From: Candidatus Hydrothermarchaeum profundi
GTDB lineage: Archaea; Hydrothermarchaeota; Hydrothermarchaeia; Hydrothermarchaeales; Hydrothermarchaeaceae
Assembly: GCA_002011125.2 (NCBI GenBank)
Contig: MTMF02000009.1
Span: 1,608,989 to 1,672,988, forward strand
Length of the DNA stretch: 64,000 bases
Direction: 5' to 3'
Below the pieces are notes generated by a model. The model was not told where the DNA came from, searched no databases, and was given only the letters and a program-made list of their open reading frames with translations. Of this stretch, positions 20,715-49,027 are shown in pieces (position 1 is the first letter of the stretch; each line of letters opens with the position of its first letter). The position numbers and the translations under genes are program-made.

Positions 20715-21368
20715 ATGGAGATTTTAGGCATAAATGGAAGCCCAAAGAAAAAAGGTAACACAGCAAGTGCACTTACATTCCTATTAAATGAATGTGAGAA
20801 AAAAATAGATACCAAAACTCGTATTTTTCATGTATATGAGATGGAAATTAACTTCTGCGATGGATGCTTCACTTGCCTTGAAAAAGGTACAAAGATAAGG
20901 CCCTGCCCTAGACATATCGATGATATGAATGAGATATATTCTAGATTAGAAGAAGCTACTGCTATAGTAATGGCGAGCCCAGTATTCTACGGTTGCGTAT
21001 CCTCAAAATTGAAGGCCTTTATGGAAAGATGCCTCCCTGCCTACGACTACCCTGCATCAAAGTGTGAATTAAAAGGAGCCCTTAGAGAAAAACTAGGGCT
21101 TGCAATCGCCGTTGGCGGGGCACGAAATGACGGAATAGAAGCAGTTCTCTCTCAACTTAGAAACTTTTTCTTTTCAAATAATATGCGCCCAATAGGTACC
21201 GCTGGTGGGATAGGGCCAAACGGGCTACCTTACCTATCAAGTAATTTGGGTGTAGGAATTGTCTCAAACGAAGAAGGAAATGCGCTAGAAAGGGATGTAT
21301 TGGCAAAAGAGTCTCTTAAATGGGCGGCTCAAAAACTGATAGACGAAGTTACTTCTGATGTGAGATAA
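20715..21368 (+). CDS. Iron-sulfur flavoprotein / multimeric flavodoxin family
   Basis: Motifs GINGSPKKKGNT, CDGCFTC...C, DDM and ASPVFYG. Confidence 0.9.
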   Translation: MEILGINGSPKKKGNTASALTFLLNECEKKIDTKTRIFHVYEMEINFCDGCFTCLEKGTKIRPCPRHIDDMNEIYSRLEEATAIVMASPVFYGCVSSKLKAFMERCLPAYDYPASKCELKGALREKLGLAIAVGGARNDGIEAVLSQLRNFFFSNNMRPIGTAGGIGPNGLPYLSSNLGVGIVSNEEGNALERDVLAKESLKWAAQKLIDEVTSDVR

Positions 21369-22888: not shown

Positions 22889-24394
22889 TTGTTAAGACTT
22901 ACTCCTATGCGGATTGCAATCCTAGTTTTTATAATGACCGTAGCAACCGCTTATGCTTATAGTCCCCACGAAGACCCATCAAAACATCCTGGAGCTTACT
23001 GTATAAACTGCCACAAGAGATTTATCGTAGATAACCCTACCGTGGTAGAGATGTTTCCATGTAATAAACAGCCATGTCATAGTTTAGGTGAGGAGGAAAG
23101 GGCCGCTATCCATCTAAAAGAATACATGTGCGAGGACTGCCATGCAGCAATGTCAAAAGGCTTCGACATCCACAACATCCACAGAGGAAAAGTCAACTGC
23201 AAGATATGCCACCTCAGCCCCAGAGGATGGAACTCATCCATAGCAACAATACCAGAGCCAACAAAAAAAATAGAATCAGAAGGCTACACCATCTACATAC
23301 CCGGAGACACCAAATGCCCATACTGCCACAAAACAGCAGAAAAACCAAAAAAACTACACCAAGTACACCAGCCAGTAATCAACACATCCTGCAAGACATG
23401 CCACGGAAGTCTACATAAAGGGGATATCTGCATTAATTGCCATGTGAAATATTCCATCAAAAAGAATTCGGGCTGCATAACTGCATGTCATAGTTTAGGT
23501 GAGGAGGAAAGGGCCGCTATCCATCTAAAAGAATACATGTGCGAGGACTGCCATGCAGCAATGTCAAAAGGCTTCGACATCCACAACATCCACAGAGGAA
23601 AAGTCAACTGCAAGATATGCCACCTCAGCCCCAGAGGATGGAACTCATCCATAGCAACAATACCAGAGCCAACAAAAAAAATAGAATCAGAAGGCTACAC
23701 CATCTACATACCCGGAGACACCAAATGCCCATACTGCCACAAAACAGCAGAAAAACCAAAAAAACTACACCAAGTACACCAGCCAGTAATCAACACATCC
23801 TGCAAGACATGCCACGGAAAAATGAAGCCCTCTATTCTAAAACTATGGGGAATAGAAGCTAAAAAAATTAAGAAAGAGGGTTTATTAGAATCATTAAATA
23901 AAAAAATCTCTAGCATTTTCCAAGCAAAAGTAGATATGAGCTGTAATTTATGCCATGAAGAACTAGTATCAAGTTTCTATACAAGCCCTGTTACTAAAAA
24001 AATCTCTAAAGTACATATGTGGGCTAGCCAAGCAGACATCTTTTTCGGGCCTAACGGAGAACTGAAATATGAAATGGAGTTTACAATTAATAATGAGAGT
24101 ACTGCCTGCCTATTATGTCACAAGATAGAAACAGTTAACGTTTATACAGGGAGCCATAAGATATACTGGAGAAAATGTACTAATGAAAGCTGTCATGGAG
24201 ATATAGCCTCAAATGGTACACGAATCTTCGTGGATGCAGGTAGCTTTAACTTGCCTGCATCAGCTAGAAATAGTCACGGATTATGGATTCAAAAAATAGA
24301 AAAAAAAGGATGGACTCAGGGATTTAGAGAAATCTGCGGTTGTCATCAGATACATCCTACCTACTCAAGAAGCTTAATAACCTCTGTTTTATAA
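22889..24394 (+). CDS. Secreted multiheme cytochrome c with 12 CxxCH, 3 CX3-4CH and 1 CxCH motifs
   Basis: Sec signal peptide (…TAYA|YSP). Heme motifs counted by eye. It has two tandem hexaheme modules plus a C-terminal tetraheme-like domain. Confidence 0.92.
   Translation: MLRLTPMRIAILVFIMTVATAYAYSPHEDPSKHPGAYCINCHKRFIVDNPTVVEMFPCNKQPCHSLGEEERAAIHLKEYMCEDCHAAMSKGFDIHNIHRGKVNCKICHLSPRGWNSSIATIPEPTKKIESEGYTIYIPGDTKCPYCHKTAEKPKKLHQVHQPVINTSCKTCHGSLHKGDICINCHVKYSIKKNSGCITACHSLGEEERAAIHLKEYMCEDCHAAMSKGFDIHNIHRGKVNCKICHLSPRGWNSSIATIPEPTKKIESEGYTIYIPGDTKCPYCHKTAEKPKKLHQVHQPVINTSCKTCHGKMKPSILKLWGIEAKKIKKEGLLESLNKKISSIFQAKVDMSCNLCHEELVSSFYTSPVTKKISKVHMWASQADIFFGPNGELKYEMEFTINNESTACLLCHKIETVNVYTGSHKIYWRKCTNESCHGDIASNGTRIFVDAGSFNLPASARNSHGLWIQKIEKKGWTQGFREICGCHQIHPTYSRSLITSVL
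23073..23819 (+). repeat. Perfect 336-bp intragenic direct repeat (23073-23408 and 23484-23819)
   Basis: CATGTCATAGTTTAGG...GACATGCCACGGAA occurs twice, offset by 411 bp (in frame), with a 75-bp unique spacer. Confidence 0.93.
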
Positions 24395-26100
24395 GTATCA
24401 AGCATATTTTTGATCTCTATCTCGTTTAATTTTCCTTGTGAACTTTCAGTTTCAAAGAATCTTTTTGGAATCCTAATCGCATCTAAATTAAAGCCTTCTC
24501 TTGTCTTAAACTTATATTTTATCTTGAAAATTTCCTTACCTATACCTAAAAATTCCTCTACCTCCTTCTGGATTCCTAAAGAGTTAAGAGCTTTTTCTAT
24601 TCGCTCTGGGGTATAAACCTCCCTTGCGAATAAGCATATCACGAGGGAATTAGCAAAACACCGCCAATAGTCTTCTCTCAATAAATTACTTACAATTTCG
24701 GTCTCTCTTAATTTACCTTTCAATAATTTTTGATCCAAGCTGTATCCCGCATTATCCAGGTGCCCATGTCTCGGACCGGCTATGTGCCCTATAAGATTCG
24801 CCCTGCCCGTATGATAACCAGCCATACCGAGCCCCCCTAACGATAAAGCATATTCCTCTCCACCAAACTTTTGTGCAGCCGCCGTTTCACCTTTAGCTAA
24901 GGCCTTATAAAAATCATTGGGCATCTTAACAATATACTGGACGGCCTTTTTATAGGCCTCCACATTACCAAAAGCCAGATCTATGCCAAGAGTATCATGT
25001 TTAGATATGAGATGGTTTTCATAGGCCTCCGTTGCCCAAGAGAGAGTCGTCCCAGTAGACATTGCATCTAGCCCCAAATGATCCACAGACTCTATTAAAC
25101 TTAGAACTTGCTCTGCCAGAGGTATCCCTAACAAGCTACCTAGCGCGAATATAGGCTCATAATCATAAGGGATCCTTTTGGTCTCGAATTCGAATCCCCT
25201 GGCAAAAGGAATCTGCATTGTAGCTATATGAATACATCCAACCGGACAAGCAGTACATGCAATGTGCTTCGCCATATAATTCTCAGCAAGATGCTCCCCT
25301 GAGATATACTCGGCATACTCAAAAGTAGAAGATTTAAGATTCCTAGTCGGCAAGCCCCTAATCTGATTCAAGGGATTGACATTAATAGCAGTACCATAAT
25401 CATGGTATTTGTTAAGACTATCAGTATTCACAATAACATCATACAACTCTTTATATGCCTTCAAATATCCTTTTTTATCCTCCATAGGTAGGTCTTTTGA
25501 ACCAGAAATCGCAATGGCTTTAAGATTCTTGCTCCCAAATACCGCTCCTAAGCCAAGCCTACCAAAATGTCTGTATGTGTCAACATTTACATTTGCATAT
25601 CTTACTAAGTTCTCTCCTGCGGGACCGATCCTTATTATACTCCTTCTACCTGGAGCGGGTTCTACATCCCTTAAAATCTTTCCCACAGTATACGCTGAAG
25701 ATATACCCCATATCGATCTCGCATCCTTAAAGTAAACTTTTTCATTTTGGATGGATAGATAAACCGGGCGATCACTTTTTCCTTTTATAACAATAGCCAT
25801 GTTTCCAGAGAAACGCATAGCGGCACCTAGCCTACCACCAGCATAGCTCTCGCCTAATTCGTTTGTCAAAGGAGATTTAAAAAGAGCAACCGCCTTAGTA
25901 CATGTAGGAAATGCCCCAGTTAAAGGTCCGGTAGATAGGATTATTGGATTCTCAGGGCTGAGAGGGTCTACGCCTTTGGGACAGTTCTCCATAAGGAGGC
26001 TTATACCTACCCCTACCCCCCCAATATATTTCTCAAAAAGGTCTTTTCTTTCCTCCTGATACACTTCTCTATTTCCAAGGTTAATGTAAAGTACATTCAT
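24361..26100 (-). CDS. Aldehyde:ferredoxin oxidoreductase family (W/Mo-pterin) enzyme
   Basis: Motifs KSPLT...GESYAGG, IGPAGENLV, GRLGLGAVFGSKNLKAI, CTACPVGC, DYE and GLDAMSTG. Confidence 0.93.
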   Translation of the reverse strand: MNVLYINLGNREVYQEERKDLFEKYIGGVGVGISLLMENCPKGVDPLSPENPIILSTGPLTGAFPTCTKAVALFKSPLTNELGESYAGGRLGAAMRFSGNMAIVIKGKSDRPVYLSIQNEKVYFKDARSIWGISSAYTVGKILRDVEPAPGRRSIIRIGPAGENLVRYANVNVDTYRHFGRLGLGAVFGSKNLKAIAISGSKDLPMEDKKGYLKAYKELYDVIVNTDSLNKYHDYGTAINVNPLNQIRGLPTRNLKSSTFEYAEYISGEHLAENYMAKHIACTACPVGCIHIATMQIPFARGFEFETKRIPYDYEPIFALGSLLGIPLAEQVLSLIESVDHLGLDAMSTGTTLSWATEAYENHLISKHDTLGIDLAFGNVEAYKKAVQYIVKMPNDFYKALAKGETAAAQKFGGEEYALSLGGLGMAGYHTGRANLIGHIAGPRHGHLDNAGYSLDQKLLKGKLRETEIVSNLLREDYWRCFANSLVICLFAREVYTPERIEKALNSLGIQKEVEEFLGIGKEIFKIKYKFKTREGFNLDAIRIPKRFFETESSQGKLNEIEIKNMLDTYKTEVIKLLE

Positions 26101-26501
26101 AGTACTTCAAACCTCTCAAGTTCAAGAATATCATGGGGGCAAAATTTAGCACAAGCTCCGCATTGAATACATATTAGCGGCTGATTTAGTTCTTCATCAA
26201 ACTCGATGGCCCCGAGAAGGCAAGCTTCAACGCATTTTTTACAACCAGTACACTTTTCTTTTATAAAATAAAGGCTATCTCTAACTTCAATAGCATACTC
26301 AGGACATGAAGCTACACATGGAGGGTCTTCACACATCCTACATGCAACAATTGCAAATTCACTTTCTATTCCGCCTGTAGTTTTAACATGTATAGCGCTC
26401 CTATCCGTAGAAATAACCCCATATCTCGTTCTAGCACATGCAAAAACGCAACTCATACAGCCGATACACCGCTCTGGATTCTTTACTTTTATCCTCTTCA
26501 T
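26097..26501 (-). CDS. 4Fe-4S polyferredoxin-type electron-transfer subunit of the AOR
   Basis: Motifs CIGCMSCVFAC, CRMCEDPPCVASCP, CTGCKKCVEAC and CIQCGACAKFCP; overlaps the AOR start. Confidence 0.92.
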   Translation of the reverse strand: MKRIKVKNPERCIGCMSCVFACARTRYGVISTDRSAIHVKTTGGIESEFAIVACRMCEDPPCVASCPEYAIEVRDSLYFIKEKCTGCKKCVEACLLGAIEFDEELNQPLICIQCGACAKFCPHDILELERFEVL

Positions 26502-26600
26502 ATCATCTCCCCTAATACTCCACTCCTCGAGTATTTTCTACCTCTGCAGATAAATATTTTATGCGGAAAAACTTTATTATCTAAAGACTGACTTAACATC

Positions 26601-27233
26601 ATGAGATTTAGTTCAATTCTTATAGTGATCCTCGTTATAACTGGAGTTTACCTACTTCCATCCGTGCTGGCAAAGTTTGCAGGAACTCACACCGTAGAAG
26701 TTAATCAAACAGGAGGCGTACAACAACTTAGATGCATCGAGTGCCATGAATACGCATTTGATGAATTAAACTCTACAGTTGCACAATCGGTGCTTAAAAA
26801 ACACAAAAATGCTGCAGGAAATTCTACTTACACTTTAAGCTGGCTCCAACGTAGCTTGAACAATCAAACCGACGAAGGAATTTGCATTCTATGCCATGGA
26901 GTAATAAAAGCTTACGAGAATTTGAGTCATACAGGAGTAGTAATGAGAGTATGCACGGATATAAATTGCCATGGAAACAATGAAACTACAAACAACACAA
27001 TGTACAGCGCGGGAAATGTTGGACCAGTTCTTGGAAATACTAACGCCCATGAAGAGTGGTTTGATGATATGGGTTCTTACTTGACTAGACATCAAAATGA
27101 GTCTGGCGCTAACTTAACTCGTGATTATTACACTTGCTTAGGTTGTCATACTTATACTGAAGTGGACATCAGTATTAGCAGAGCTAACTATGATCATTCA
27201 GACCCCTCATACAGCAAAAATAGGTATATTTAA
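26601..27233 (+). CDS. Secreted tetraheme cytochrome c, putative nanowire (ECN-like) subunit paralog
   Basis: Signal peptide ending LPSVLA-KFAGTH; heme motifs CIECH, CILCH, CTDINCH and CLGCH; 9 NxS/T sequons. Confidence 0.85.
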   Translation: MRFSSILIVILVITGVYLLPSVLAKFAGTHTVEVNQTGGVQQLRCIECHEYAFDELNSTVAQSVLKKHKNAAGNSTYTLSWLQRSLNNQTDEGICILCHGVIKAYENLSHTGVVMRVCTDINCHGNNETTNNTMYSAGNVGPVLGNTNAHEEWFDDMGSYLTRHQNESGANLTRDYYTCLGCHTYTEVDISISRANYDHSDPSYSKNRYI

Positions 27234-27339
27234 TCAAACTTTGACGGAAAGTAAGAATTTTTCTAGGATTTTTAAATGAAATTTACTTTTATTTACAAAT
27301 AATAAGAATAAATAAACATCGACACTAAGTCTCTTATGG

Positions 27340-27426
27340 AAAAGTTTAAATATTATTTTGATTATTGTTAATCTAACACCGTCCCTCATCTGGGAGATAC
27401 TATGAGGAAGGAGACGGAGGTGAAAT
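27340..27426 (+). promoter_or_regulatory. BRE/TATA promoter, 5'-UTR hairpin and RBS of the 27428 cytochrome
   Basis: GAAAAGTTTAAATA at ~27340-27353; stem CCGTC-CCTCAT / ATGAGG...GACGG at 27379-27417; RBS GGAGGTGA before the TTG. Confidence 0.55.
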
Positions 27427-27427
27427 A

Positions 27428-28204
27428 TTGAATACGAAATTGTTGATGCTGATGGGAACAATCGTGTTGGGTATATATGTGCTCCCGAGCGTAACAGCAA
27501 AATTTGCAGGGTCCCACACTATGGAGGCTAATACTACGGGAGGCGTTACTGAAGTGCAGTGCGGTAATTGTCATCAGTACATTCAAGACGAGTTGAACTT
27601 ATCGGATGGTAGTCTATCAGATGACGTAGTTACTGCCCATATAACTGCTCTTCAAGATACTAATTATGCCAATGCCAGTAACCAAAGTGCCCCGCTAAAG
27701 ATGGATGCTATTACAGATGCTGATATTACTACTGTGTGTCATCTCTGCCACAAAGTTCAATCAGGAGTTAGTGGAGGACACACCCAAGTAACCATTAGAG
27801 CCTGTACAGATTCAGCGTGCCATGGCTATAACTCAAGCGCAAGCCCATTATATTCGAGTAAACTGAATATAACTGAGAAGCTAGGTTCACCCTATGATGC
27901 CCACAATGTTTGGTATAATGCTATGACAAGCGCATCACCGTATAAAGCAGATGATGTAGATGGATGGGCTGGAGACTTAGTAAACCAAACTGCTGTGAGC
28001 GGTGGGAACTATACGATAGCATTTTATACCTGCTTAGGATGCCATACTCACGTGGGAATCGAATTCTCGCCAATAAACAGGTGGAACGCCTATAGTATCA
28101 ATGTATCTTTCAATAATCAGGGAGCTGCTACTGTAGAGTTTATAAATATGACTAGCACAAATACGACTTACGCCTCTAAGTCCCACGGCTCCGTCTGGAG
28201 ATAA
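27428..28204 (+). CDS. Secreted tetraheme cytochrome c, putative major nanowire (ECN-like) subunit
   Basis: Signal peptide ending LPSVTA-KFAGSH; heme motifs CGNCH, CHLCH, CTDSACH and CLGCHTHV; 11 NxS/T sequons; own promoter and terminator. Confidence 0.87.
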   Translation: MNTKLLMLMGTIVLGIYVLPSVTAKFAGSHTMEANTTGGVTEVQCGNCHQYIQDELNLSDGSLSDDVVTAHITALQDTNYANASNQSAPLKMDAITDADITTVCHLCHKVQSGVSGGHTQVTIRACTDSACHGYNSSASPLYSSKLNITEKLGSPYDAHNVWYNAMTSASPYKADDVDGWAGDLVNQTAVSGGNYTIAFYTCLGCHTHVGIEFSPINRWNAYSINVSFNNQGAATVEFINMTSTNTTYASKSHGSVWR

Positions 28205-28227
28205 GATTCCTAATAACTCAACAATCT

Positions 28228-28270
28228 CCCGGGTGAATATGAACACCCGGGTAAAACTTTTTTATTTTTT
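28228..28270 (+). terminator. Hairpin plus T-tract terminator
   Basis: CCCGGGTG-aatatgaa-CACCCGGG followed by TTTTTATTTTTT. Confidence 0.7.
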
Positions 28271-28304
28271 AAAAGCTAGGTTAATCTATAATTACTGAAA
28301 CAAT

Positions 28305-29015
28305 ATGCGGCTGACTAATATGTATAGGGAGTATACAAAGTACTTAGCGTTTGTAATCGCTATTACAGCGGCCTTCGAGTTGGTATACGCATATAATCCC
28401 TACGAAAACCCTAAGACTCACCTAGGAGCAATTTGTATTGACTGCCATAAGCGGTTTAAAGATGTTATCGATAATCCAACTGTATCTTCTTTCAGACCAT
28501 GTTATAAAGATGACTGTCATTTATCTGCAGATAAATGGGGAGGCAAGTCGAAGAGGGAAAGCCTACATCTCTCACGAGAAATCTGCAAAAATTGCCATAC
28601 TGAGATTCACACCACCCATAGAGATCGAGTAAATTGCAGAGTATGCCACATGAGTCCTAGGGGATGGAACTCCTCAAAAGTAAGGATACCTGTATCCAAG
28701 GAACAGAGGGTTTTTGAGGAGATGACCATTACTATACCTGGTAGCGCAGAATGTTCCTATTGCCACTTTAAAATTCCTAGTGCAAAAAACATACACGAGG
28801 TACATTCTCCAGAACTAAAGAATAACCAAACATGCTTAAAATGCCATGGGAAAGTAATCGAGAAGCGGCCTGACCTTATAGCTAAGATGAGTGGTGAAAA
28901 GATTGAAGAAAAGAAAAGAGGTTTAATGAACTCTCGGCCAATAGTTGAATTTATTAGGTTTTATAACCTAATAACGATGCAGCTGATAGAGCTATTTACA
29001 TCAAAGGTGAGATAA
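28305..29015 (+). CDS. Secreted hexaheme cytochrome c, paralog of the repeated module of 22889
   Basis: Signal peptide (…VYA|YNP); heme motifs CIDCH, CYKDDCH, CKNCH, CRVCH, CSYCH and CLKCH; shares VNCxxCHxSPRGWNSS with 22889; C-terminal amphipathic helix. Confidence 0.9.
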   Translation: MRLTNMYREYTKYLAFVIAITAAFELVYAYNPYENPKTHLGAICIDCHKRFKDVIDNPTVSSFRPCYKDDCHLSADKWGGKSKRESLHLSREICKNCHTEIHTTHRDRVNCRVCHMSPRGWNSSKVRIPVSKEQRVFEEMTITIPGSAECSYCHFKIPSAKNIHEVHSPELKNNQTCLKCHGKVIEKRPDLIAKMSGEKIEEKKRGLMNSRPIVEFIRFYNLITMQLIELFTSKVR

Positions 29016-29852
29016 GTGGTTTTTCAACATCAATATCAATATCAGTATCAATATCAAACACAACTAGGATTTCAATATCAGTCTTTTGACCAGCTTATCC
29101 ACGAGCTTCCATTAACGGTTATTGTCCTTTCAATTTTTATAGCTTTGAGCCCTTTTTTTATATATTTACTTCATAGAAGAGGCGTTATTCCATCCGTCAT
29201 GAAACCTATTTTTAAGGCAGGATTACTTGTAAAAACAAAGTTAAGAGATAGAAGCATAAAATCTAGGATAACCGATGAATATACTAGTCTCAGAGATAAG
29301 AGAATAGAGTTCGGTTCGGTCGTATCCTTGGGTTTTTACTTGGCAAACGTCGTATTATTTTTATTGGTAGCTACAAAGATGATATTTTTTGGATTAGTGG
29401 TTTCTCAATCTATGCTTCCTACTCTAGCGCCTGCCGACTTAGTACTTTGTGAAGCTATCTCGATAAATAGTATAGAAAAAGGCGATATAGTTGTATTCTC
29501 GCCTCCAAACGGTGGCCCTATGACAATTCACAGGGTAGTAAGAGTGGGCCCGGATGGAATTAGAACCCGCGGGGATAACGTGGGGACAATGGACCCATGG
29601 ACGCTGAAGAAAGAGGATATCGTAGGTAAAGCGGTCATGGTTAATGGTAAACCCGTTATTCTAAAGAACTTTGGAACATATTTTATGCCTCGAAGAACTT
29701 ATATTCCAGGATCTGATCCCGCGTATGATTTTGTTAGAGGCATGATAAACGCCGTACATAGGTTTGGTCCGATATTTATTATATCTCTTGCTCTCTTAGC
29801 CCTAGTGTTCAGTTTTGGGGGAAAAAAGAAAAGGTATCTAACATATTCTTAA
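29016..29852 (+). CDS. Signal peptidase I (S26, archaeal Ser/His type)
   Basis: Motifs SQSMLPTL, GDIVVF, IHRVV and RTRGDN; extra TM segments. The start is uncertain. Confidence 0.85.
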   Translation: MVFQHQYQYQYQYQTQLGFQYQSFDQLIHELPLTVIVLSIFIALSPFFIYLLHRRGVIPSVMKPIFKAGLLVKTKLRDRSIKSRITDEYTSLRDKRIEFGSVVSLGFYLANVVLFLLVATKMIFFGLVVSQSMLPTLAPADLVLCEAISINSIEKGDIVVFSPPNGGPMTIHRVVRVGPDGIRTRGDNVGTMDPWTLKKEDIVGKAVMVNGKPVILKNFGTYFMPRRTYIPGSDPAYDFVRGMINAVHRFGPIFIISLALLALVFSFGGKKKRYLTYS

Positions 29853-29882
29853 AAAATAATAGAAAATTAAAAGGCACTAAAT

Positions 29883-30851
29883 ATGAAGCCACAAGAACCG
29901 CCAAAAATTGGGGAGCTGCCTCCAGAGGAACATGCTATTGGAATTTACGCTGGATTAGCTCTGGGAGGGCTTATTCTTGGAACTGGAGCCTCAGTATTAT
30001 TTAGAGACATACTCATGACGTTTACTACAGAGGGTTTGACTTTTAATCTTATCATGATATTCAGGATCTTCCTATTCTTTTTTTCAGCTTACGCGTCTCT
30101 AGCATGCTTTTTCGGGCTATTCAGAATGATAGGGTTACAACGTATGTTAGTGCGGGAAGTTGATAAGGAATTTAAAGACTTTGTGATGTATGCTAGACCT
30201 CTGATAGAAGAGATAATTAAGCAGAGAATCGTGGGTGAAACAATCGCGGAAAAACTTGATAATCTCATACGTTCAACGACAACGGTAGAGGATAAAAGAC
30301 GGTTTGAATATGGCAGACCACTAGACATTAGAGTACCTAAGTGGGGAGAGTTTCTATTGTTCGTCGCACTTTTGGCTAACATAAGTATTGGGCTTTTTAT
30401 TTTTTTAGAGAGGCATCCTTGGGAGCTCGTACCTTATAGTATCATCCTGTTGGCGATTGGCTGGTGGGTAGTGATAGCAAAATACTTCGGTCTTTTATAT
30501 GAGATACGTTCTCAGTATTTTCCAGCATTTTTTATACTTCTCATGCCAACATTATCTATACTCCTTAGAGCTTATCTAGAACTTTATCAGACCCTTTACT
30601 TAGTTTTTATATTTTTATTCCTCTATGTCATTTCAATGTACTTTTACTTCAAATACCTCGCAACTGGAGAGATTCCGCTATTTATAATAAAGAGCTTCTC
30701 GAGAGTAGGCATAGATTTAGAGAAGAGCAAGGAACTACCCTTTCACTTAAAAAAGTATATGCCCCCAGAGAAACCTGAAAAGAAAGAAAAGTTTATTACC
30801 ATAAAAATGAGTGAGAAACTAAAAACGATTTTAAAGAAGTTTAAAAGATAA
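29883..30851 (+). CDS. Uncharacterised multi-pass membrane protein
   Basis: 2 TM segments, a soluble helical loop, then 4 TM segments; lies in the cytochrome operon. Confidence 0.75.
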   Translation: MKPQEPPKIGELPPEEHAIGIYAGLALGGLILGTGASVLFRDILMTFTTEGLTFNLIMIFRIFLFFFSAYASLACFFGLFRMIGLQRMLVREVDKEFKDFVMYARPLIEEIIKQRIVGETIAEKLDNLIRSTTTVEDKRRFEYGRPLDIRVPKWGEFLLFVALLANISIGLFIFLERHPWELVPYSIILLAIGWWVVIAKYFGLLYEIRSQYFPAFFILLMPTLSILLRAYLELYQTLYLVFIFLFLYVISMYFYFKYLATGEIPLFIIKSFSRVGIDLEKSKELPFHLKKYMPPEKPEKKEKFITIKMSEKLKTILKKFKR

Positions 30852-30856
30852 AAAAA

Positions 30857-31789
30857 ATGACCGCTAAAATATTTTTAAAACTCTTAAATCAATATACTGA
30901 AGCTATTAGAAACTACTGTGAAGCATTAGGTTGGGACTACGAGAAATTTAAGACTAGTATTAGTGATGAAGGAATCAGTCACCCCGAGTTATATTTGGAG
31001 GATCCAAATGAGGGGATACTTGACAGGATAAGCCAGTTCTTGGAGCCCAGCAATCAGAGCTCAGTTTTAATTATCTGGGATGATGTGGGGATGGGTAAGA
31101 GTTCGATTAGAGATTTTGTTTCGAAATCCTTAGATGAAGTAGGGAGCTATCATACGGTCGTTATAACTGACCCCAGACTTACTCCATTACAACTTCTTCG
31201 TGCAATCGCGGACCAGCTAGATGCTAAGGCGGATGTTTGGAACGATCGGGGGAAAGTTAAAGAAGCCCTTTGGAAGAGGATGTTGGAAGTTACTGGGCTT
31301 GGGATAAACATAGTTATATGGGTTGATGAAGCAGAAAAGGTGGATAAAAATATAATATCCGAACTAAGAGCTTTAAGCGATATTAAAAGAGAAGACGGCT
31401 CTAAGCTTTGTAAGATTATTCTCTCAGGGACCCCTCGGTTAAAAGAGAAACTAGAGGATTACATCGAGAGCCGCTCAAGCGACGTACTCGCCTTTGACGA
31501 TAGGGCAAGTTTAAATACTCTTCGGCTTAATAAGTGGAAACCAGGAGATATCTATAACTATTGGAATCTTCTAGCTGAATATTGTGGAGGTATTAATCCC
31601 TTCAGTAAAGAAGCCGCTGAAACCGTATGGGAAATAAGTGATGGTAAACCGAGGACAATTGCTCAGATTACTAAGCTTGTTATAAACCAAAAGGCAATGG
31701 ATTATTATAAGAGAGGTGGAGCACCAGAGATAACTCCTGAGTTTATATTGGATACCATCAGAAAACACTTAGGTGAGGGAAGTGCGTAA
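30857..31789 (+). CDS. ExeA/GspA-like AAA ATPase
   Basis: Walker A variant DDVGMGKS, Walker B WVDEAE, and the ExeA-type motifs IILSGTPRL and SDGKPRTI. Confidence 0.78.
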   Translation: MTAKIFLKLLNQYTEAIRNYCEALGWDYEKFKTSISDEGISHPELYLEDPNEGILDRISQFLEPSNQSSVLIIWDDVGMGKSSIRDFVSKSLDEVGSYHTVVITDPRLTPLQLLRAIADQLDAKADVWNDRGKVKEALWKRMLEVTGLGINIVIWVDEAEKVDKNIISELRALSDIKREDGSKLCKIILSGTPRLKEKLEDYIESRSSDVLAFDDRASLNTLRLNKWKPGDIYNYWNLLAEYCGGINPFSKEAAETVWEISDGKPRTIAQITKLVINQKAMDYYKRGGAPEITPEFILDTIRKHLGEGSA

Positions 31790-32255
31790 AAAGTTGGATC
31801 TGCGAGAGAAACTTAGGAAGTTGTCAGAGGAGAAGAGGAGAGAGACAGCATTATTAAGGGCTAAAAAGATCGTAGAAATCCCTCAAAAACCTAAACTACT
31901 TTCAATATCTGAGCTGAGTTTTCCTCAAGGGTCACCTCTTAAGCGCTCCGATATAATTACCTCGAAGACAAGATTAGAGGAGACGCTAGTGCATGAGTCG
32001 AACTCTGAGATAGAGGTAAAATGGACAGTTACTGAGGATGCATATGCTGAAGAGTTTGGCTCTGCAGTTAGAGAGGGATTTACCCAAGTTAAAACACATC
32101 CTCCTACGTATGCTTTTAGGTATAAAGAGGGAGGAATAGTTCTTTCACACTTAGGTGCATACACTTTTGTATTGGGGAGTTATACATTAGAGATTGAAAA
32201 GCTTTCTGAGCTTCTGGAGTTTGCAATCAGGGTTTTAAAGCCTAAAATCACTTAA
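31773..32255 (+). CDS. Hypothetical protein
   Basis: 160-aa ORF overlapping the end of the ATPase gene, with a basic coiled N-terminus. Confidence 0.6.
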   Translation: MREVRKKLDLREKLRKLSEEKRRETALLRAKKIVEIPQKPKLLSISELSFPQGSPLKRSDIITSKTRLEETLVHESNSEIEVKWTVTEDAYAEEFGSAVREGFTQVKTHPPTYAFRYKEGGIVLSHLGAYTFVLGSYTLEIEKLSELLEFAIRVLKPKIT

Positions 32256-32262
32256 GAAATAA

Positions 32263-34737
32263 TTAACTTTCTTCTAAAGCTTTTTCATATTGTTTCTTAA
32301 GAGTCTTATACGCTTTCTTGGATATTTTACCCTCTTCGTATGATTTTCTAAGTTCAGCTAACGATTTCTCTAAGTATTCTCTATCTGGGTTAGATACCTG
32401 ACCGGCTGAATCCTCTGCGATCATCCTAGAGTAGCGAACTGGTGGTATCTCCAGCCTTGTCTCAATAATTATCAGAGGAAGTATCCCAACAGATAAAAGG
32501 ACTATTCCAAGCCAAAGGATGCCTACTCCTGGGATAATTTTTACAGTTAGCGGCACAATCACACTGCCTGGTCTCTGAGTTGCTAATCCCTGAAAGATGA
32601 CATAAACATCAGAGAATAACCCTCGATTGATGTAGACGTGGGTCACTTTCCCAAATTTTCTATCATCAATGGACTCTGCAAGGCCACCTCCTATGTACTT
32701 ATCGTCTTTATATACGCCTAGTTCTATGGCTGTAGCCCACCATCCATCTTGAGTAAGATAGACTTCGATATCATTTACAGCGATGGCATAACCCATTAGG
32801 ATACTTCTTTTAATTCCTTTCTCATCTGGAAAAGTAAAACTCGTAGACATCTCAGCTTCGTATACTGCGCTTATTAAAGTTCCGATGAGAATCAACGCTA
32901 ATCCCAGATGAATGAGGTAGATGCTAGCCTGTCGAAGTTTACCTTTCAGTGTTTTAGGAGAAGATATTCCATGAACTATTCTATAAATAGCTCCCATGCC
33001 GCCAAAAAGAGCCAAGGGTCCTAGAGAATTTATGTAGAGATTCGCGGTAGGTTTCACAATAATTGAAACTGCTGTAGCTATAATTACCCCGGCTGCCATC
33101 CTAGTAAGTTTATCTTTATTTATCTTACTGTAGAGAAGGCAAAATCCCATAGCAAGCATCAGCAATGCAGTAAAAGGGAGGCTCCATTTATTAAAAAACT
33201 CTACTCCTACAGAAATTTTAGCTCCAGTTCTAGCCTGTACTAGCATCGGATAAGTTATACCCCAGAAGGATACGAAAGCTAGTACAGATAAGAGTACAAC
33301 TGCTATATAGAACAGGTTTTCACGTGTTAGAAGCTCTATTTTCTCCTCTTCCTCTTTTTCTTCTAGTTGGACATTTGAATTTTTACTTTTTAAATCTTCA
33401 CCTTCATCCCACACCCTCCTTAAGATTAAGAATAATACGAATGTAAGAGCAAATATAAAGATAGCCTGCCTAAATGTAGGCAATGCACTGCCTCCTTTTT
33501 CGAGGAACTTCTTGTAGAGTGCTAATACAAACTGGGAGGAAATGAATGAGCAGATTAAATTTATAGAGTCTTTATTCACCTGTGTTATCTTACCTTCATT
33601 TCTACGGTAGAAATCTATTCCGAGTATTAATGAAACAAAAGCAATATTCACCATAAGAAATGCTAGCCATGGCCCTGTGGTCGTTTGAGCAAAAGCATGA
33701 ACGGATTCCCACAAGCCGCTTCTCGTTATAAACGTAGCGTAGACTACAAGGAGAAAGGTTATTACTGCTAAAAAGGGCGAGAATATCTTAAAGTCCCCTC
33801 GCCTCTTATACTGTACTGAAGCATGCAATAAGCCGGTCAATGTTAACCAAGGTATAAATGAAGATGTTTCAACGGGATCCCATGCCCAGTAACCGCCCCA
33901 GCCGAGTACTTTATATGACCAGAACCCTCCTACCGCTATGCCTAAAGTAAGGAAGAGCCATGCAAACCTATTCCACTGCTTGCTATATGATTCCCAGGTT
34001 GCCTCTCCCGTAGAAAGGTATACCAAAGCTCCAGATAAAGTAATAGTAACTGCAGCGTATGCGATGAATATTACTGGAGGATGCACCGCCATCCAAGGAT
34101 CTCTAAGCAACGGATTCAAGCCGTTTCCTTCTATAGATGCCACTAACTCTGGTGTGACATCAGGGTATATCTCATATAGGGTCTTAAAAGGGGTTACTAG
34201 GATGGTAAGTGTAATGAAAAAGATGCCTATAAGTAGATTTATAATCTGGGATTTTCTAATAAATGTATTCTCTAATCCGCTCTTCTCCTGTATGATCCAC
34301 GTATATACAAAAATTAACCACGCCCAGAGAAGATATGTTCCCTCCTGTCCTGCCCATACTGCGGAGAGTTTATATACCGTTGGCAGAGTCGTGCTACTAA
34401 ACTGCCATACATAGTTTATAGAGAAATCCGACTTAAGGAAGTAATATGTCAGAAGAATAACTGAAAATGTAAGAAACCCTGTGGTACATCTAATCGCCCA
34501 AGGAATAAGCTTTAGTGCTTTTTTATATCCTTTTATTTCATAAGCTAATAGCATTATTATCGAAGTAGCTGCGAGGAGCCAACTTAAGGCGAGTAAAACA
34601 TTTCCTTCTGATAGTCCTCCAAGACTATAAAGGCCAAAAGGTAATGATGAGAGATTGCTTCTAAATGGCAACAGTAAGAGAATCACAGAGGCAATGACGA
34701 TTAGTAGTGGAAGAATTGGCTTCTTATCTCCTTCCAT
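32263..34737 (-). CDS. ccmF: Cytochrome c heme lyase CcmF
   Basis: Motifs WAGQEG, GLNPLL, HPP, LGWGGYWAWDPVE and TRSGLWESVHAF; short SHOCT-like C-terminal tail. Confidence 0.95.
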   Translation of the reverse strand: MEGDKKPILPLLIVIASVILLLLPFRSNLSSLPFGLYSLGGLSEGNVLLALSWLLAATSIIMLLAYEIKGYKKALKLIPWAIRCTTGFLTFSVILLTYYFLKSDFSINYVWQFSSTTLPTVYKLSAVWAGQEGTYLLWAWLIFVYTWIIQEKSGLENTFIRKSQIINLLIGIFFITLTILVTPFKTLYEIYPDVTPELVASIEGNGLNPLLRDPWMAVHPPVIFIAYAAVTITLSGALVYLSTGEATWESYSKQWNRFAWLFLTLGIAVGGFWSYKVLGWGGYWAWDPVETSSFIPWLTLTGLLHASVQYKRRGDFKIFSPFLAVITFLLVVYATFITRSGLWESVHAFAQTTTGPWLAFLMVNIAFVSLILGIDFYRRNEGKITQVNKDSINLICSFISSQFVLALYKKFLEKGGSALPTFRQAIFIFALTFVLFLILRRVWDEGEDLKSKNSNVQLEEKEEEEKIELLTRENLFYIAVVLLSVLAFVSFWGITYPMLVQARTGAKISVGVEFFNKWSLPFTALLMLAMGFCLLYSKINKDKLTRMAAGVIIATAVSIIVKPTANLYINSLGPLALFGGMGAIYRIVHGISSPKTLKGKLRQASIYLIHLGLALILIGTLISAVYEAEMSTSFTFPDEKGIKRSILMGYAIAVNDIEVYLTQDGWWATAIELGVYKDDKYIGGGLAESIDDRKFGKVTHVYINRGLFSDVYVIFQGLATQRPGSVIVPLTVKIIPGVGILWLGIVLLSVGILPLIIIETRLEIPPVRYSRMIAEDSAGQVSNPDREYLEKSLAELRKSYEEGKISKKAYKTLKKQYEKALEES

Positions 34738-34739
34738 CC

Positions 34740-35174
34740 TTACACCGTTTCATTTAGCTGAAGTTCATACTTAGAAGGACACTTAACAAGTATCTGTTCT
34801 GCCTTAAATTGGTTTGGTGACACAAGTGAACCTATAACCACAACATCTATTTCTGACTCGCTTCCTAGATCCTTACCTACCGGGAAATTACTAGGTAATA
34901 CGCCTTCATAGGTCACCTGTATTTGTGAAACGTCATCAGTTAATACAAAAGTCAATGTGTTTGGAACCCAGCGTACGGTTTCTTCTACCACCCGCCCTTC
35001 TAACTGTATCTGCCTATTCAGGAACTTATCTGGACTTGATACTACTTCGCTTACCGACTTATAGGGATTAACAAACCCAGATAAAGCACTGAAGCCTATC
35101 GCGACAAAAAGGATGATAATGAGTGCTCCAAAACCGACCTTTAATTTTTTGGCTGTTTTTTTATCCACCAACAT
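34740..35174 (-). CDS. ccmE: Heme chaperone CcmE, CxxxY type
   Basis: N-terminal TM segment, YEGVLP, and C-terminal KCPSKY. Confidence 0.92.
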   Translation of the reverse strand: MLVDKKTAKKLKVGFGALIIILFVAIGFSALSGFVNPYKSVSEVVSSPDKFLNRQIQLEGRVVEETVRWVPNTLTFVLTDDVSQIQVTYEGVLPSNFPVGKDLGSESEIDVVVIGSLVSPNQFKAEQILVKCPSKYELQLNETV

Positions 35175-35284
35175 CACCTACTTTTAATCTTCCTAATCCT
35201 CCCATCTATATACACCATGTATAATATCAGTACCGTCCACAAGATGGTTGCAACAATAAATATGCTGGTGTAATTTTCCATCAT
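35174..35284 (-). CDS. ccmD: CcmD-like small membrane protein (36 aa), not in the ORF track
   Basis: MMENYTSIFIVATILWTVLILYMVYIDGRIRKIKSR: a single TM segment plus basic tail, between ccmC and ccmE, with a TGATG overlap onto ccmE. Confidence 0.7.
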   Translation of the reverse strand: MMENYTSIFIVATILWTVLILYMVYIDGRIRKIKSR

Positions 35285-35294
35285 ATTCCTCCTA

Positions 35295-35963
35295 TCAAAT
35301 TGCCTTTGTTGTTGTATCCTCTAACTCCTGAAGTTTTACTTCAAGCCAAAGGAGATATCCGTATAGTAAAAGGACACCGACAATCATAATAATTAAAACA
35401 GGCCTCATTTGGGGTGAGAGGCTAAACTCCTTCAATCTTGGATGAAGAGAAAACCACATCGTAGTGGATATATATGTTAGAGGGATGCCTGCATACCCAA
35501 ACACCCCTAAGATAGCTGAGAGTCTTGCCTTAGATTCTTTATTTACGATAGATGATCTTAAAGCAAAATAGGAAGCAAATATGAACCATAAAATAAGTGT
35601 AGTTGTTTCCCTTGGATCCCAATTCCAATAACTTCCCCAAGCAGGTTTTGCCCAGACCATTCCGGTAAATAAAGTTAATGAACAAAAAATTATCCCCAAC
35701 TTTGCAGAACTCGACGCGACTCTATCCCATTTAAGGTCTCTCGTCTTGAGATACATTAAGCTAAAGACTAATGTCACAGTAAATGCGGTATACGTAGTAG
35801 CATTTATGGGTATATGGAAGAACACATTCCTATAAAGTTCTTCCATGGGTTTTGTTCTAGACTCTATGGGTCCAAAAACCACTAATGCATTATACATGCC
35901 AAAAAGAACCATTATATATACTGTGCCAAGAAGCGCTAGTGCATAGCCTCTTTTAAATTCCAT
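35295..35963 (-). CDS. ccmC: Heme delivery protein CcmC
   Basis: FFHIP, the WWD motif WAKPAWGSYWNWDPRET, and LHP. Confidence 0.95.
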   Translation of the reverse strand: MEFKRGYALALLGTVYIMVLFGMYNALVVFGPIESRTKPMEELYRNVFFHIPINATTYTAFTVTLVFSLMYLKTRDLKWDRVASSSAKLGIIFCSLTLFTGMVWAKPAWGSYWNWDPRETTTLILWFIFASYFALRSSIVNKESKARLSAILGVFGYAGIPLTYISTTMWFSLHPRLKEFSLSPQMRPVLIIMIVGVLLLYGYLLWLEVKLQELEDTTTKAI

Positions 35964-35969
35964 TTAAAG

Positions 35970-36638
35970 TCACTCCTCAAGGGCATAGTCAAAAGTCAAA
36001 AGAGATATAACGGCCATGATAACAGTATACGCTATTATTATTTTAAACTCGCCCATCGTATTTAAAAACGTTTCTCCTTCTACTAAAACTTTCTTTAAAG
36101 CTGATATGGAGGATATTATAATAGGGAACAACACTGGAAAAAGGATAACAGGTAACAGCAGTTCTCTAGCTCGAGCATTAAGTATTAATACTGACATAGC
36201 AGAGCCTACAACTGCAAAACCGAGGTTTCCCAAGGTGAGGTAAAAAAAAGATAAGGCTATACTTCCCGCTACAGGGAAATTAAAGAAGAGTAGGAATATT
36301 GGAAACGATATAACCTCAATTAATACAAGCAAAGAAAAATTGTAAGCGACTTTACCCAGCAAGATGTCTGTTCCACTAACCGGAGAGAGTTTTAACCCCT
36401 CGAGAGTTCCTAGATCTTTTTCTCTAGTAAAGGCCCTTGACAGGCCCAGCATGCCTGAAAAAATTAAAATAAGCCATAAAAGACCTGGCCCGATGTCTGG
36501 GACAGCTGCGATAAAAGCGCCTACAATATAGCTAAACATTAAAATTGAAAGAAGAGCAAAAAGAAGCATGAAATTTATAGTATGCTTTGTTCTAAACTCT
36601 ATTAAGAGGTCCTTCTTAGCTATTTTTAGCGCCTTCAT
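35970..36638 (-). CDS. ccmB: Heme exporter permease CcmB
   Basis: Motifs KDLLIEFR, REKDLGTLEGL and RELLLPVILFP. Confidence 0.93.
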   Translation of the reverse strand: MKALKIAKKDLLIEFRTKHTINFMLLFALLSILMFSYIVGAFIAAVPDIGPGLLWLILIFSGMLGLSRAFTREKDLGTLEGLKLSPVSGTDILLGKVAYNFSLLVLIEVISFPIFLLFFNFPVAGSIALSFFYLTLGNLGFAVVGSAMSVLILNARARELLLPVILFPVLFPIIISSISALKKVLVEGETFLNTMGEFKIIIAYTVIMAVISLLTFDYALEE

Positions 36639-37381
36639 TACTCTACTCCCTTCTCGGTAAGTCTTATGAAAGTCTCTTCCAAAGTCTCAACTCCTTTAAT
36701 TTCTTCGAGTGTGCCACATGCTTTGACCTCCCCTCCGTCAAGGATGCAAGCTTTATCACAAAGTTTTTCAGCTTCATCGAGATAATGAGTCGTAAGCAGG
36801 ATCGTAGTATCCTGTAGGCTAAGCTCTTTTATCCACTTGTAGAAAATGTGCTTACCTTGAATATCCAATCCAGCGGTTGGTTCATCTAACAATAGTATTT
36901 TCGGGGCGTGTATTAAGGCCCTAGCAATAGCCAACCTTTGTTTCATTCCTCTCGAGAAGGTGCCGACAAGTTCGTTTCCTCTATCCTCTAAATTTACCAT
37001 TTTTAGTAATGCTTCCGCATTGTTCCTATTAACTTCAAAAAGATCAGCATAGAAGTGAAGATTTTCCCTAGCTGTAAGCTCATCATATAAAAAGGGATTA
37101 TGCGAGACTACCCCGATAAGTTTCTTTACTTCCTCCGGTTCTTCCTGTAAATCTAGGCCGCTTATTATTATTTCTCCGGATGTGGGTTTAAGTAAGGTAC
37201 TTAATATCTTTATCAAAGTAGTTTTTCCAGCACCATTTGGCCCAAGAAGAGCAAAAGATTCTCCTTCAGCCACAGAAAAACTTACCCGATTAATGGCTAA
37301 GTGGCCACCGAACTCTTTGCACACCTCTTTTAGCTCTATAATAGCCAATCTATCACCGTCGGTTATTTTATTTGATGTCAA
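36638..37381 (-). CDS. ccmA: ABC ATPase CcmA
   Basis: Motifs GPNGAGKT, FSRGMKQR and LLLDEP; first gene of the ccm operon. Confidence 0.9.
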   Translation of the reverse strand: MTSNKITDGDRLAIIELKEVCKEFGGHLAINRVSFSVAEGESFALLGPNGAGKTTLIKILSTLLKPTSGEIIISGLDLQEEPEEVKKLIGVVSHNPFLYDELTARENLHFYADLFEVNRNNAEALLKMVNLEDRGNELVGTFSRGMKQRLAIARALIHAPKILLLDEPTAGLDIQGKHIFYKWIKELSLQDTTILLTTHYLDEAEKLCDKACILDGGEVKACGTLEEIKGVETLEETFIRLTEKGVE

Positions 37382-44645: not shown

Positions 44646-45012
44646 CTTAGCAATAATTTACTGCGCAGAAAATAAAAAGCTATCGAGAGGATAACCAACC
44701 TGCTGGGCAGGATTTTAACATTATATTATATTCTAACCCTTTACGCCCTATACCTATCTCCCTTATCATCAAGCTTTCACGAAAATCTTCAGAAGACATT
44801 CAAGTAACTATGCCGCTGAATAGACCGCTGAAATCCTTTCACCGCCGTGTCGTGCTCCTTGCAAATTGGACATTGGTATCCGTGGTTCTAACACCCGACG
44901 TTCCCCGTGACTGTTTACTATACTTATGCAGACTGATAATCAGGGACTAACAAGGATAAATACTTTACGCCCATTAGCTCCGATCTCAGATAACTACATG
45001 AGTATAAAGAAA

Positions 45013-45354: not shown

Positions 45355-45437
45355 TCCTTCGACTTTAACTTAGATTTAAACAGATGTATAGACCAGATTC
45401 AAAGGCAAAGGTTTATAAACCTTACCGTTGAACGGTA

Positions 45438-49012: not shown

Positions 49013-49027
49013 AGGGGGAAGTGGCAG

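Follow-up and report, generated by a model that had tools for sequence, protein, structure and literature searches.

The analysed DNA is a 64,000-nucleotide (nt) stretch of Candidatus Hydrothermarchaeum profundi (assembly GCA_002011125.2, contig MTMF02000009.1, positions 1,608,989-1,672,988 of the forward strand), referred to below as the window. Within it, a 14.5-kb locus at positions 22889-37381, flanked by housekeeping genes, was studied with an open reading frame (ORF) listing and with Pfam and NCBIfam scans (Table 1). Four of its genes encode multiheme cytochromes (MHC501, T4a, T4b and MHC236), each with an N-terminal hydrophobic signal sequence and several heme c motifs. The last three of these, together with the genes for a signal peptidase I paralogue, the polytopic membrane protein TM322, the ATPase AAA310 and the orphan protein orf160, form a seven-gene co-directional array (26601-32255), which is the main subject of this work; the four plus-strand genes located 3' of MHC236 are spaced by 0-30 nt, with a single 17-nt overlap. 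The opposite strand carries a gene pair for an AOR-family enzyme and its Fe-S partner, placed between MHC501 and T4a, as well as a set of ccm genes. An earlier reading of the same DNA, made from its letters alone (the sequence-only reading), had named all of these genes, and every one of them was found, contiguously arranged, by the ORF list and the Pfam and NCBIfam scans (ccmD by position only). The names on relatives of the locus proteins are Hydrothermarchaeales or Hydrothermarchaeota.

Table 1. Features of the locus at window positions 22889-37381 (aa, amino acids; TM, transmembrane segment).
Feature	Position	Strand	Description
MHC501	22889-24394	+	501 aa; secreted; 15 heme motifs (12 CxxCH, 1 Cx3CH, 2 Cx4CH)
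AOR-family enzyme	24361-26100	-	PF02730 5.9e-70, PF01314 1.1e-62
Fe-S protein	26097-26501	-	Poly-4Fe-4S ferredoxin-like AOR partner; Fer4 families
T4a	26601-27233	+	210 aa; 3 CxxCH + 1 Cx4CH; short AvECN-family tetraheme (by sequence)
T4b	27428-28204	+	258 aa; 3 CxxCH + 1 Cx4CH; full-length AvECN-family tetraheme (by sequence)
Terminator-like hairpin	28228-28270	+	GC-rich 8-bp stem, then two T6 runs, directly 3' of T4b
MHC236	28305-29015	+	236 aa; secreted 6-heme cytochrome; 5 CxxCH + 1 Cx4CH
Signal peptidase I paralogue	29016-29852	+	TIGR02228 above cut-off
TM322	29883-30851	+	Polytopic membrane protein, no named family, ~6 hydrophobic spans
AAA310	30857-31789	+	Soluble 310-aa AAA_22 (ExeA-like) P-loop ATPase; PF13401 7.6e-15
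orf160	31773-32255	+	Soluble conserved orphan; overlaps ATPase gene by 17 nt
CcmF-type heme lyase	32263-34737	-	PF01578, PF16327
CcmE heme chaperone	34740-35177	-	PF03100 5.6e-19
ccmD-position ORF	35174-35284	-	36 aa, single TM; assigned from position and size only
CcmC	35295-35963	-	222 aa; PF01578; TIGR01191 2.2e-30
CcmB heme exporter permease	35970-36638	-	PF03379 3.1e-29
CcmA-type ABC ATPase	36638-37381	-	PF00005; TIGR01189 142.6 bits, cut-off 131.6

The tetraheme cytochromes T4a and T4b, which share 39% identity, were compared with known structures using two profiles, one built from 26 close T4 relatives (A1) and the other from an alignment of 117 family sequences (A3); 241 family members had come up at E ≤ 0.001 when 1.84 billion representatives were searched exhaustively by profile. 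Searched against the whole Protein Data Bank (PDB), A1 found a single significant chain, that of the Archaeoglobus veneficus cytochrome filament AvECN (8E5G; E 7e-12), while A3 matched the same chain with an E-value of 2.7e-45 over residues 3-239 of 258. Since A3 holds distant members that are possibly close to AvECN, A1 is the fairer measure for T4b. Single-sequence searches of the PDB were nearly blank (E 0.055 for T4a and no match for T4b). In the A3 alignment the four heme motifs (C45, C104, C126-131 and C202) are in register with the heme sites of 8E5G, and the distal histidines of T4b (H30, H71, H118 and H159), all invariant in A1, are aligned to histidines of 8E5G, the ligand positions reading GxH, AH, AH and AH. 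On this profile evidence, T4a and T4b are true homologues of the AvECN family, membership being established at the level of sequence. An AlphaFold model computed from the A3 input (pLDDT 80.4; a model from the shallow 26-sequence alignment, with a pLDDT of 51, was discarded) ranked 8E5G first in a Foldseek search, weakly (E 0.013), and 8E5G was the best structural match, model and chain sharing about 17% identity when aligned by structure. Foldseek on its own listed nothing at E ≤ 0.001, and the fold agreement is consistent with family membership, not decisive for it. Membership in the PcECN type was rejected, as 8E5F was not listed by the A3 profile at E ≤ 1. Orthologues of T4a, at 47-50% identity, are present in three other loci (L005, L006 and L010).

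The signal region of the T4 proteins is unusually well conserved, with Y17, L19, P20, A24, A27, G28, H30 and E33 invariant in 26 sequences. A peptidase-I-type cleavage site is predicted in T4b at VTA/KFAGSH (the slash marks the cut), which would make the invariant His30 the sixth residue of the mature protein. The density of N-x-S/T glycosylation sequons (4.29 per 100 aa in T4a and about 4.3 in T4b) falls at the 99.6-99.7th percentile of 1817 genome ORFs; by comparison, MHC236 has 0.85 per 100 aa. The gene that immediately precedes MHC501 (21349-22749, minus strand) encodes a GT4-family glycosyltransferase, which might act on T4a and T4b, given their extreme sequon density; no such gene was seen in the related loci examined. 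Directly behind T4b there is a terminator-like hairpin (fold energy -16.2 kcal/mol, z -3.55, with none of 200 shuffles as stable), and a hairpin followed by a T-run occurs 3' of the T4b orthologue in 10 of 10 loci, the sequences being unrelated, while such a combination is found at 3 of the 73 ORF ends in the window, T4b counted among them, at an energy threshold that was set after the data had been seen. With its T-run beginning 7 nt past the stem, the T4b hairpin escaped a strict consensus terminator scan. The conserved signal region, the sequon density and the hairpin fit an exposed, abundant structural protein, and T4b is, judged by its sequence, a candidate for the major filament subunit.

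The peptidase encoded within the array scores about 55.5-57 bits against TIGR02228 (cut-off 51.85), and the second signal peptidase I of the genome, the housekeeping copy on contig C8, reaches 115 bits. The residues Ser132 (SMxP), His172 (H172-R173) and Asp187 (G186-D187) are invariant in 24 sequences, the housekeeping copy included. By its sequence, the cluster protein is a divergent signal peptidase I of the archaeal/ER type, with His in place of the bacterial Lys and with intact catalytic residues. It has additional segments that are missing from the housekeeping copy, i.e. a Q/Y-repeat N-tail, an N-terminal TM, a basic loop and a C-terminal TM. The N-tail (29016-29090) is a Gln-Tyr repeat (QYQYQYQ...) lacking basic residues before the first TM, and, judged by charge, it may face outward; the number of repeats varies among the Hydrothermarchaeota orthologues, the tail of L011 being very long.

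The neighbouring protein TM322 matched no Pfam family at E ≤ 10 and nothing in the Atlas at 0.9 or above, and its relatives are publicly named 'hypothetical protein'. Hydropathy indicates about 6 spans, joined on one side by outward loops of 7-10 residues; the protein also contains a 70-residue loop with 15 Lys and Arg residues and a 62-residue C-tail with 17. This basic loop and tail are, from the charge counts, probably cytoplasmic, and TM322 is a candidate membrane platform. Genome searches with a profile of the TM322 family alignment (A2) found it in 23 of 38 genomes of the same phylum and in 59 of 401 sampled genomes of a second phylum, that of a Methanosarcinales-labelled genome. In one locus (L127; G007:C2:541000-560500) two tandem TM322-family genes (280 and 297 aa) follow the peptidase gene, and a cytochrome of at least 1866 aa, with 45+2 motifs, precedes the T4 genes.

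Conservation of the gene neighbourhood was assessed ORF by ORF in 21 T4-centred loci, obtained from a one-genome-per-species scan for T4 relatives, and in TM322-centred loci, 20 from each phylum. Among the T4-centred loci, the peptidase paralogue was present in 17 (the remaining four lie on contigs that break off no more than 250 nt from the T4 gene), TM322 in 14, AAA310 in 4 and orf160 in 4; loci labelled Methanosarcinales have the order T4-T4-peptidase-TM322. The TM322-centred loci of the same phylum contain a cytochrome in 16 cases, the peptidase in 13 and a T4-family ORF in 13, and those of the second phylum the peptidase in 15 and a T4-family ORF in 10. For 23 of 29 further TM322 hits in the second phylum, an ORF of the peptidase family, or one with at least two CxxCH motifs, lies no more than 1.5 kb away. 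At the level of whole genomes, T4 genes occur in all 23 TM322-positive genomes of the own phylum and in 56 of the 59 of the second phylum, neither gene being found in 10 and 334 genomes, respectively. T4a and T4b are, in two phyla, genomically linked to the signal peptidase I paralogue and TM322, and the link between TM322 and T4 is strong, despite the kinship of the genomes. Two architectures of the module were distinguished: (i) type A, represented by this window, with T4b, MHC236, the peptidase, optionally T4a, TM322, the ATPase and the orphan, and (ii) type B, with two T4 genes, the peptidase, optionally a 7-heme T4-like protein, TM322 and a 5-heme cytochrome, and no ATPase. Type B was found in other families of the own phylum and, with variations of gene order, in the second phylum. 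Co-conservation covers 26601-32255 and does not extend over the full 14.5 kb, and the array is more than a chance assembly; AAA310 and orf160 join its core in one Hydrothermarchaeota subgroup.

The seven-gene array, probably helped by MHC501, is on balance best taken as the Hydrothermarchaeota version of a widespread archaeal module for AvECN-type cytochromes, a reading that we hold with more than even confidence. Both the assembly of filaments and the functions given to the accessory genes are deduced from sequence, and several observations weigh against this reading. With regard to the subunits, the third heme site is Cx4CH in T4b and CxxCH in 8E5G, and T4a ends soon after its fourth heme site and is devoid of the C-terminal beta region that in T4b is aligned to AvECN. 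As far as the neighbourhoods are concerned, TM322 stands alone in 15.9 kb of L124 and in 4 of the 20 second-phylum loci, 10 of which have no T4 gene within 9 kb, and in other loci the peptidase/TM322 pair lies beside giant or 5-heme cytochromes; the pair is not exclusive to T4 genes and fits general cytochrome maturation as well as a filament role. T4-positive genomes without TM322 also exist (5 of 28 in the own phylum and 8 of 64 in the second; some of them are incomplete), and the co-occurrence tables overstate the support because kin genomes are not independent. No RNA datasets holding 26601-32255 were listed. One further point, the plasmid-borne relative of AAA310, is described below.

The same observations bear on a different explanation, according to which the peptidase paralogue and TM322 process signals, or handle heme, for all secreted multiheme cytochromes, T4a and T4b being ordinary small carriers of a pseudo-periplasm or S-layer that form no filament. 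The occurrence of the pair away from T4 in half of the second-phylum loci and next to giant and 5-heme cytochromes speaks for it, as do the dispersed T4 genes of five second-phylum-type genomes (5-10 family matches each, located elsewhere) and the peptidase-I-type sites that are also present on MHC236 and MHC501 (AYA/Y and VYA/Y, respectively). Heme handling and signal cleavage for multiheme cytochromes generally were moreover suggested, in the available part of the source, for the corresponding pair of anaerobic methanotrophic archaea (ANME) (Chadwick et al., PMC9012536). It is countered by the full-length alignment of T4b, ligand histidines included, with a protein solved as a filament, by the shortness of the outward TM322 loops, which leave little room for an external heme-handling domain, by the extreme sequon density that T4a and T4b have and MHC236 does not, and by the close tracking of T4 by TM322 (23/23 and 56/59 genomes). 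Taken together, we consider such a general maturation role without filaments rather unlikely.

AAA310, the ATPase of the AvECN-type module in this subgroup, belongs to a tight family (52-78% identity) and was found in 12 of the 38 own-phylum genomes, including all 10 with a TM322 match of at least 180 bits; the other two are G017, with a partial TM322 at a contig start, and G028, in which, at 89% completeness, no TM322 was found. The gene adjoins TM322 in six loci (L005, L009, L121, L122, L123 and L134), always downstream and separated by gaps of 5-50 nt. Its relatives are publicly annotated as 'ExeA'. Identification as an ExeA orthologue was rejected: AAA310 has only 310 aa, no TM, and a TIGR03015 score (51.4 bits, E 9.8e-14) far below the cut-off of 324.5. 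A PDB sequence search gave no match. The named relatives shown are from Hydrothermarchaeales with three exceptions, which are a Methanobacteriota metagenome-assembled genome, archaeon BMS3Abin16 and a plasmid of Methanohalobium evestigatum; the plasmid-borne protein (P0243; 45% identity) is the only named methanogen relative. The orphan orf160 matched no family (Pfam to E ≤ 10, NCBIfam) and nothing in the Atlas at 0.9 or above. Its homologues follow the ATPase gene in L005, L009, L010, L121, L122, L123 and L134, and the eight sequences share a conserved C-terminal domain and the invariant residues W84, D89, E101, P110 and H126.

Because of the plasmid-borne relative, a role of AAA310 unrelated to cytochromes is possible. 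AAA310 and orf160 could be a separate two-gene unit, e.g. a mobile-element or regulatory ATPase pair, which merely travels with the cytochrome genes in one lineage and takes no part in cytochrome biogenesis. AAA_22 ATPases act in many unrelated systems, both genes are missing from the second-phylum module and from the other Hydrothermarchaeota architecture, and in G027, G032 and G033 the ATPase and TM322 are on different contigs. The ATPase is nevertheless present in each of the 10 genomes whose TM322 is of the high-scoring type, as well as in G017, its position directly downstream of TM322 recurs in six loci, and in G034 and G026, where the ATPase gene lies away from TM322, the contig also carries T4-family matches; the large conserved cytoplasmic parts of TM322 could, besides, dock a soluble partner. 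An independent unit of this kind is judged unlikely.

Nine of the 21 T4-centred loci, L004-L007 and L009-L013, contain a homologue of the 6-heme cytochrome MHC236 next to T4b and the peptidase; six of the nine, all but L004, L007 and L013, bear a Hydrothermarchae* label. MHC236 was rejected as a T4 relative (hhalign probability 10%), and its PDB sequence search was uninformative (best match OmcA, E 0.0042). In the module, MHC236 is a candidate for the electron link from cell to filament. MHC501 is composite: its residues 1-175 and 174-350 are two MHC236-like modules, as revealed by matches to MHC236-type genes of other loci, and its C-terminal residues 340-501 match the T4 profile A1 (hhalign probability 97.6%, E 2.7e-12), the T4-core homology covering the last 140 residues. 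Missing from this T4-like module are the His segment at the N-terminus and the beta region at the C-terminus, and the fourth of its motifs is a degenerate one, with ICGCH aligned to CLGCH. A PDB sequence search with MHC501 was likewise uninformative (best E 0.047). Large cytochromes with T4-like parts also lie near the module in L121 and L134, and MHC501 is a candidate adaptor or end-piece. The ATPase-orphan pair and this fused cytochrome, an adaptor by our reading, are the additions of the present Hydrothermarchaeota variant.

The second MHC236-like module of MHC501 results from the duplication of a 300-nt direct repeat (23073-23372 and 23484-23783; 100% identity), by which the six-heme module is doubled. 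Contigs assembled from two short-read runs of different studies (X1 and X2) both break at the repeat borders, and the depth of the repeat unitig in X1 is 1.7x that of its flanks, which led to the rejection of a pure assembly artefact. Two copies are likely; no X1 or X2 contig bridges the repeat, so that their arrangement is without independent confirmation. The second run holds 23790-29904 without any difference.

The remaining genes of the locus are of another kind. The AOR-family enzyme has both the AFOR_N and the AFOR_C domain and scores below the equivalog cut-offs for the named AOR/GAPOR types. The ccm genes make up a System I complement (CcmA, B, C, E and F by Pfam/NCBIfam, CcmD by position); in CcmE the bacterial HxxxY is replaced by C-P-S-K-Y, which we take to be the archaeal CxxxY variant. 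Neither the AOR, its Fe-S partner nor CcmB, CcmC, CcmE or CcmF was found in any of the 21 T4-centred loci or of the 20 TM322-centred loci of the own phylum. The AOR, which has no homologue in related loci, was rejected as part of the system and judged an unrelated neighbour. The genome has no CcmC gene besides that of the window, which means that all cytochromes of the organism have to be served by this operon, its general system; there are four genes for CcmF-size paralogues, the other three lying at C9:736826, 1023580 and 1044727. A private filament-dedicated Ccm apparatus was rejected on account of this single CcmC and the absence of ccm genes from related loci. Twenty ORFs of the genome have at least two CxxCH motifs, and 16 of them are located outside the locus, among them two giants about 700 kb away, of 3924 aa (67 CxxCH and 6 longer motifs; G000:C9:916461-928235) and 2035 aa (33 and 3 motifs; G000:C9:936624-942731).

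These results delimit what the sequence-only reading had proposed; taken to its full extent, it makes the whole of 22889-37381 one self-contained unit for extracellular electron transfer, with electrons supplied by the AOR and filament subunits matured by a Ccm system of their own. The contiguity of the genes and the position of the AOR pair between two cytochrome genes could be quoted in its favour, together with a CcmF homologue near the peptidase/TM322 pair in L098 and with the ccm genes that, according to the part of PMC9012536 available, adjoin ANME MHC-B clusters. The absence of the AOR pair and of CcmB, C, E and F from all the related loci mentioned above, the single CcmC, the 16 other multi-CxxCH ORFs and the location of the AOR and ccm genes on the strand opposite to the core array make such a unit very improbable. 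The locus is not self-contained, given those 16 ORFs and the lack of co-conservation of AOR and ccm, and the idea that it brings its own maturation machinery in the form of ccm had to be given up, since the ccm operon encodes the genome's one CcmC, next to a single CcmF out of four of that size. The filament-subunit proposal survives, on sequence, in T4a and T4b, over an extent that had been drawn too wide. In the search for joint recurrence that the sequence-only reading had asked for, the core holds up: the tetrahemes and the genes at 28305, 29016 and 29883 are found together, and those at 30857 and 31773 join them in a single Hydrothermarchaeota subgroup.

Further genes were noted elsewhere in and near the window. 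An NrfD-family membrane subunit is encoded at the window start (14-883) and a 242-aa ORF with 3+1 heme motifs about 1 kb before it (G000:C9:1607175-1607903); the two could form a membrane quinol-cytochrome complex feeding extracellular cytochromes. The plus-strand gene 41239-42222 encodes a pyruvate-kinase C-terminal-like domain fused to a diadenylate cyclase (DAC) domain, and the 7-kb region 43846-50567 contains four universal-stress-protein (Usp) genes, accompanied by genes of an ArsR-type regulator and a TauE/SafE exporter.

If the array is indeed an AvECN-type module, the following course of events can be proposed. The apo-cytochromes would be exported via Sec and would receive heme outside the membrane from the general Ccm system of the genome, which would be next door by chance. 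The private peptidase would cleave T4b at its predicted site and free an N-terminus whose His30 could ligate a heme. In all known cytochrome filaments except OmcZ, axial histidines come from neighbouring subunits, and in AvECN-type filaments histidines of neighbouring subunits act as heme ligands (both from the available part of bioRxiv 10.1101/2023.06.12.544705). T4b, presumably heavily N-glycosylated and expressed from its own terminated transcription unit, would then polymerise into a heme wire like AvECN. TM322, mostly embedded in the membrane and with large cytoplasmic parts, would act as a maturation or assembly platform, and may couple to AAA310 and orf160 where these exist. MHC236 and MHC501 would relay electrons from the cell to the wire; with no N-terminal His segment in its T4-like end, MHC501 may attach to one end of a filament. 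A bolder, speculative version, to which we give little credence so far, is that the peptidase paralogue, TM322, AAA310 and orf160 constitute a dedicated ATP-coupled membrane machine that releases and polymerises AvECN-type subunits at the cell surface, with MHC501, as an integral base or cap, connecting the filament to the other cytochromes of the cell. If true, it would mean that the biogenesis machinery of an archaeal cytochrome nanowire had been identified for the first time.

To our knowledge, no mechanism has been described for the export, maturation, anchoring and polymerisation of archaeal cytochrome nanowires. The locus and its relatives in two phyla provide a short list of directly testable candidate parts for building such wires, i.e. 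a private peptidase, the orphan TM322, which is found almost only in genomes with AvECN-type genes, and, in Hydrothermarchaeota, an ATPase with its partner.

A comparison with known systems places these parts among several partial analogues. ExeA/GspA proteins consist of an AAA_22 domain, a TM segment and a periplasmic peptidoglycan-binding domain; AAA310 shares the AAA_22 P-loop domain with them and with the PEP-CTERM-associated ATPases of TIGR03015, and differs in having neither a TM segment nor a peptidoglycan-binding part. The tapA-sipW-tasA operon of Bacillus subtilis presumably offers a parallel, as we take it to place a dedicated signal peptidase I paralogue of the archaeal/ER type (Ser-His) beside the gene of an extracellular fibre subunit; it is bacterial, its fibre is not a cytochrome, and it has no polytopic orphan or ATPase. 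The closest relative of the tetrahemes is AvECN itself (UniProt F2KMU8, PDB 8E5G), which belongs to the same family by profile and is the best, though weak, structural match. T4b and AvECN have in common four hemes with an aligned bis-His ligand set, a similar length (258 and 262 aa), a peptidase-I-type signal with the conserved LPS...F.G.H segment and many glycosylation sequons. They differ in the low structural-alignment identity (about 17%), in the Cx4CH third site of T4b and in the tight cluster of accessory genes around its gene; AvECN has, in addition, been seen as a filament, whereas T4b is known here from its gene alone.

AvECN homologues have been reported from ANME, Methanoperedens, Syntropharchaeales, Archaeoglobales and a Methanocellales archaeon (parts of PMC11176372 and PMC13748539). 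Two of them, MmcX of Ca. Serpentinarchaeum (Met12), which is highly expressed in situ (PMC11176372, in part), and ECN-Mv of Ca. Methanoperedens vercellensis, were, like T4b here, proposed as nanowire subunits; they come from another phylum, and the passages available from the two papers are silent on a peptidase, membrane protein or ATPase as machinery. In the OmcZ/OzpA system of Geobacter, with an archaeal OmcZ2 in Methanoperedens (PMC13748539, in part), the gene of a filament cytochrome is likewise clustered with that of a maturation protease, but the cytochrome is an unrelated octaheme, the processing is C-terminal and of the subtilisin type, not by signal peptidase I, and a TM322 or AAA_22 partner is absent. 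For Hydrothermarchaeota, the available part of PMC6759336 suggests extracellular electron transfer from counts of multiheme cytochromes only.

The nearest precedent for the accessory genes comes from ANME, Geoglobus and Ferroglobus, where a signal peptidase is encoded together with a polytopic membrane protein without annotation beside multiheme cytochromes (Chadwick et al. 2022, PMC9012536, available in part), for which signal cleavage and heme handling were suggested. With this pair in print, as well as the AvECN homologues, the view of the sequence-only reading that the gene combination was undescribed proved too strong. No literature was found that ties the peptidase/TM322 pair to AvECN-type subunits or names the ATPase; Baquero et al. 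2023 (Cell) and its supplements were outside the coverage of this search and may already show the AvECN neighbourhood. In the ANME, as in the present array, a private peptidase abuts a polytopic membrane protein and cytochrome genes flank the two, and the TM322 family is found in exactly this arrangement in Methanosarcinales-labelled genomes. The ANME protein is described as '8x TMH' and TM322 has about 6 hydropathy spans; the family identity of the two is suggested by context, not by accessions. In the parts of the paper available, the pair is connected with heme handling and a giant MHC-B/CcmF2 cluster, no link to AvECN-type subunits is drawn, and homologues in other organisms are denied; here the pair was found in 23 of 38 Hydrothermarchaeota genomes. 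Both the AvECN-type genes and the peptidase/membrane-protein pair are now extended to the uncultured Hydrothermarchaeota.

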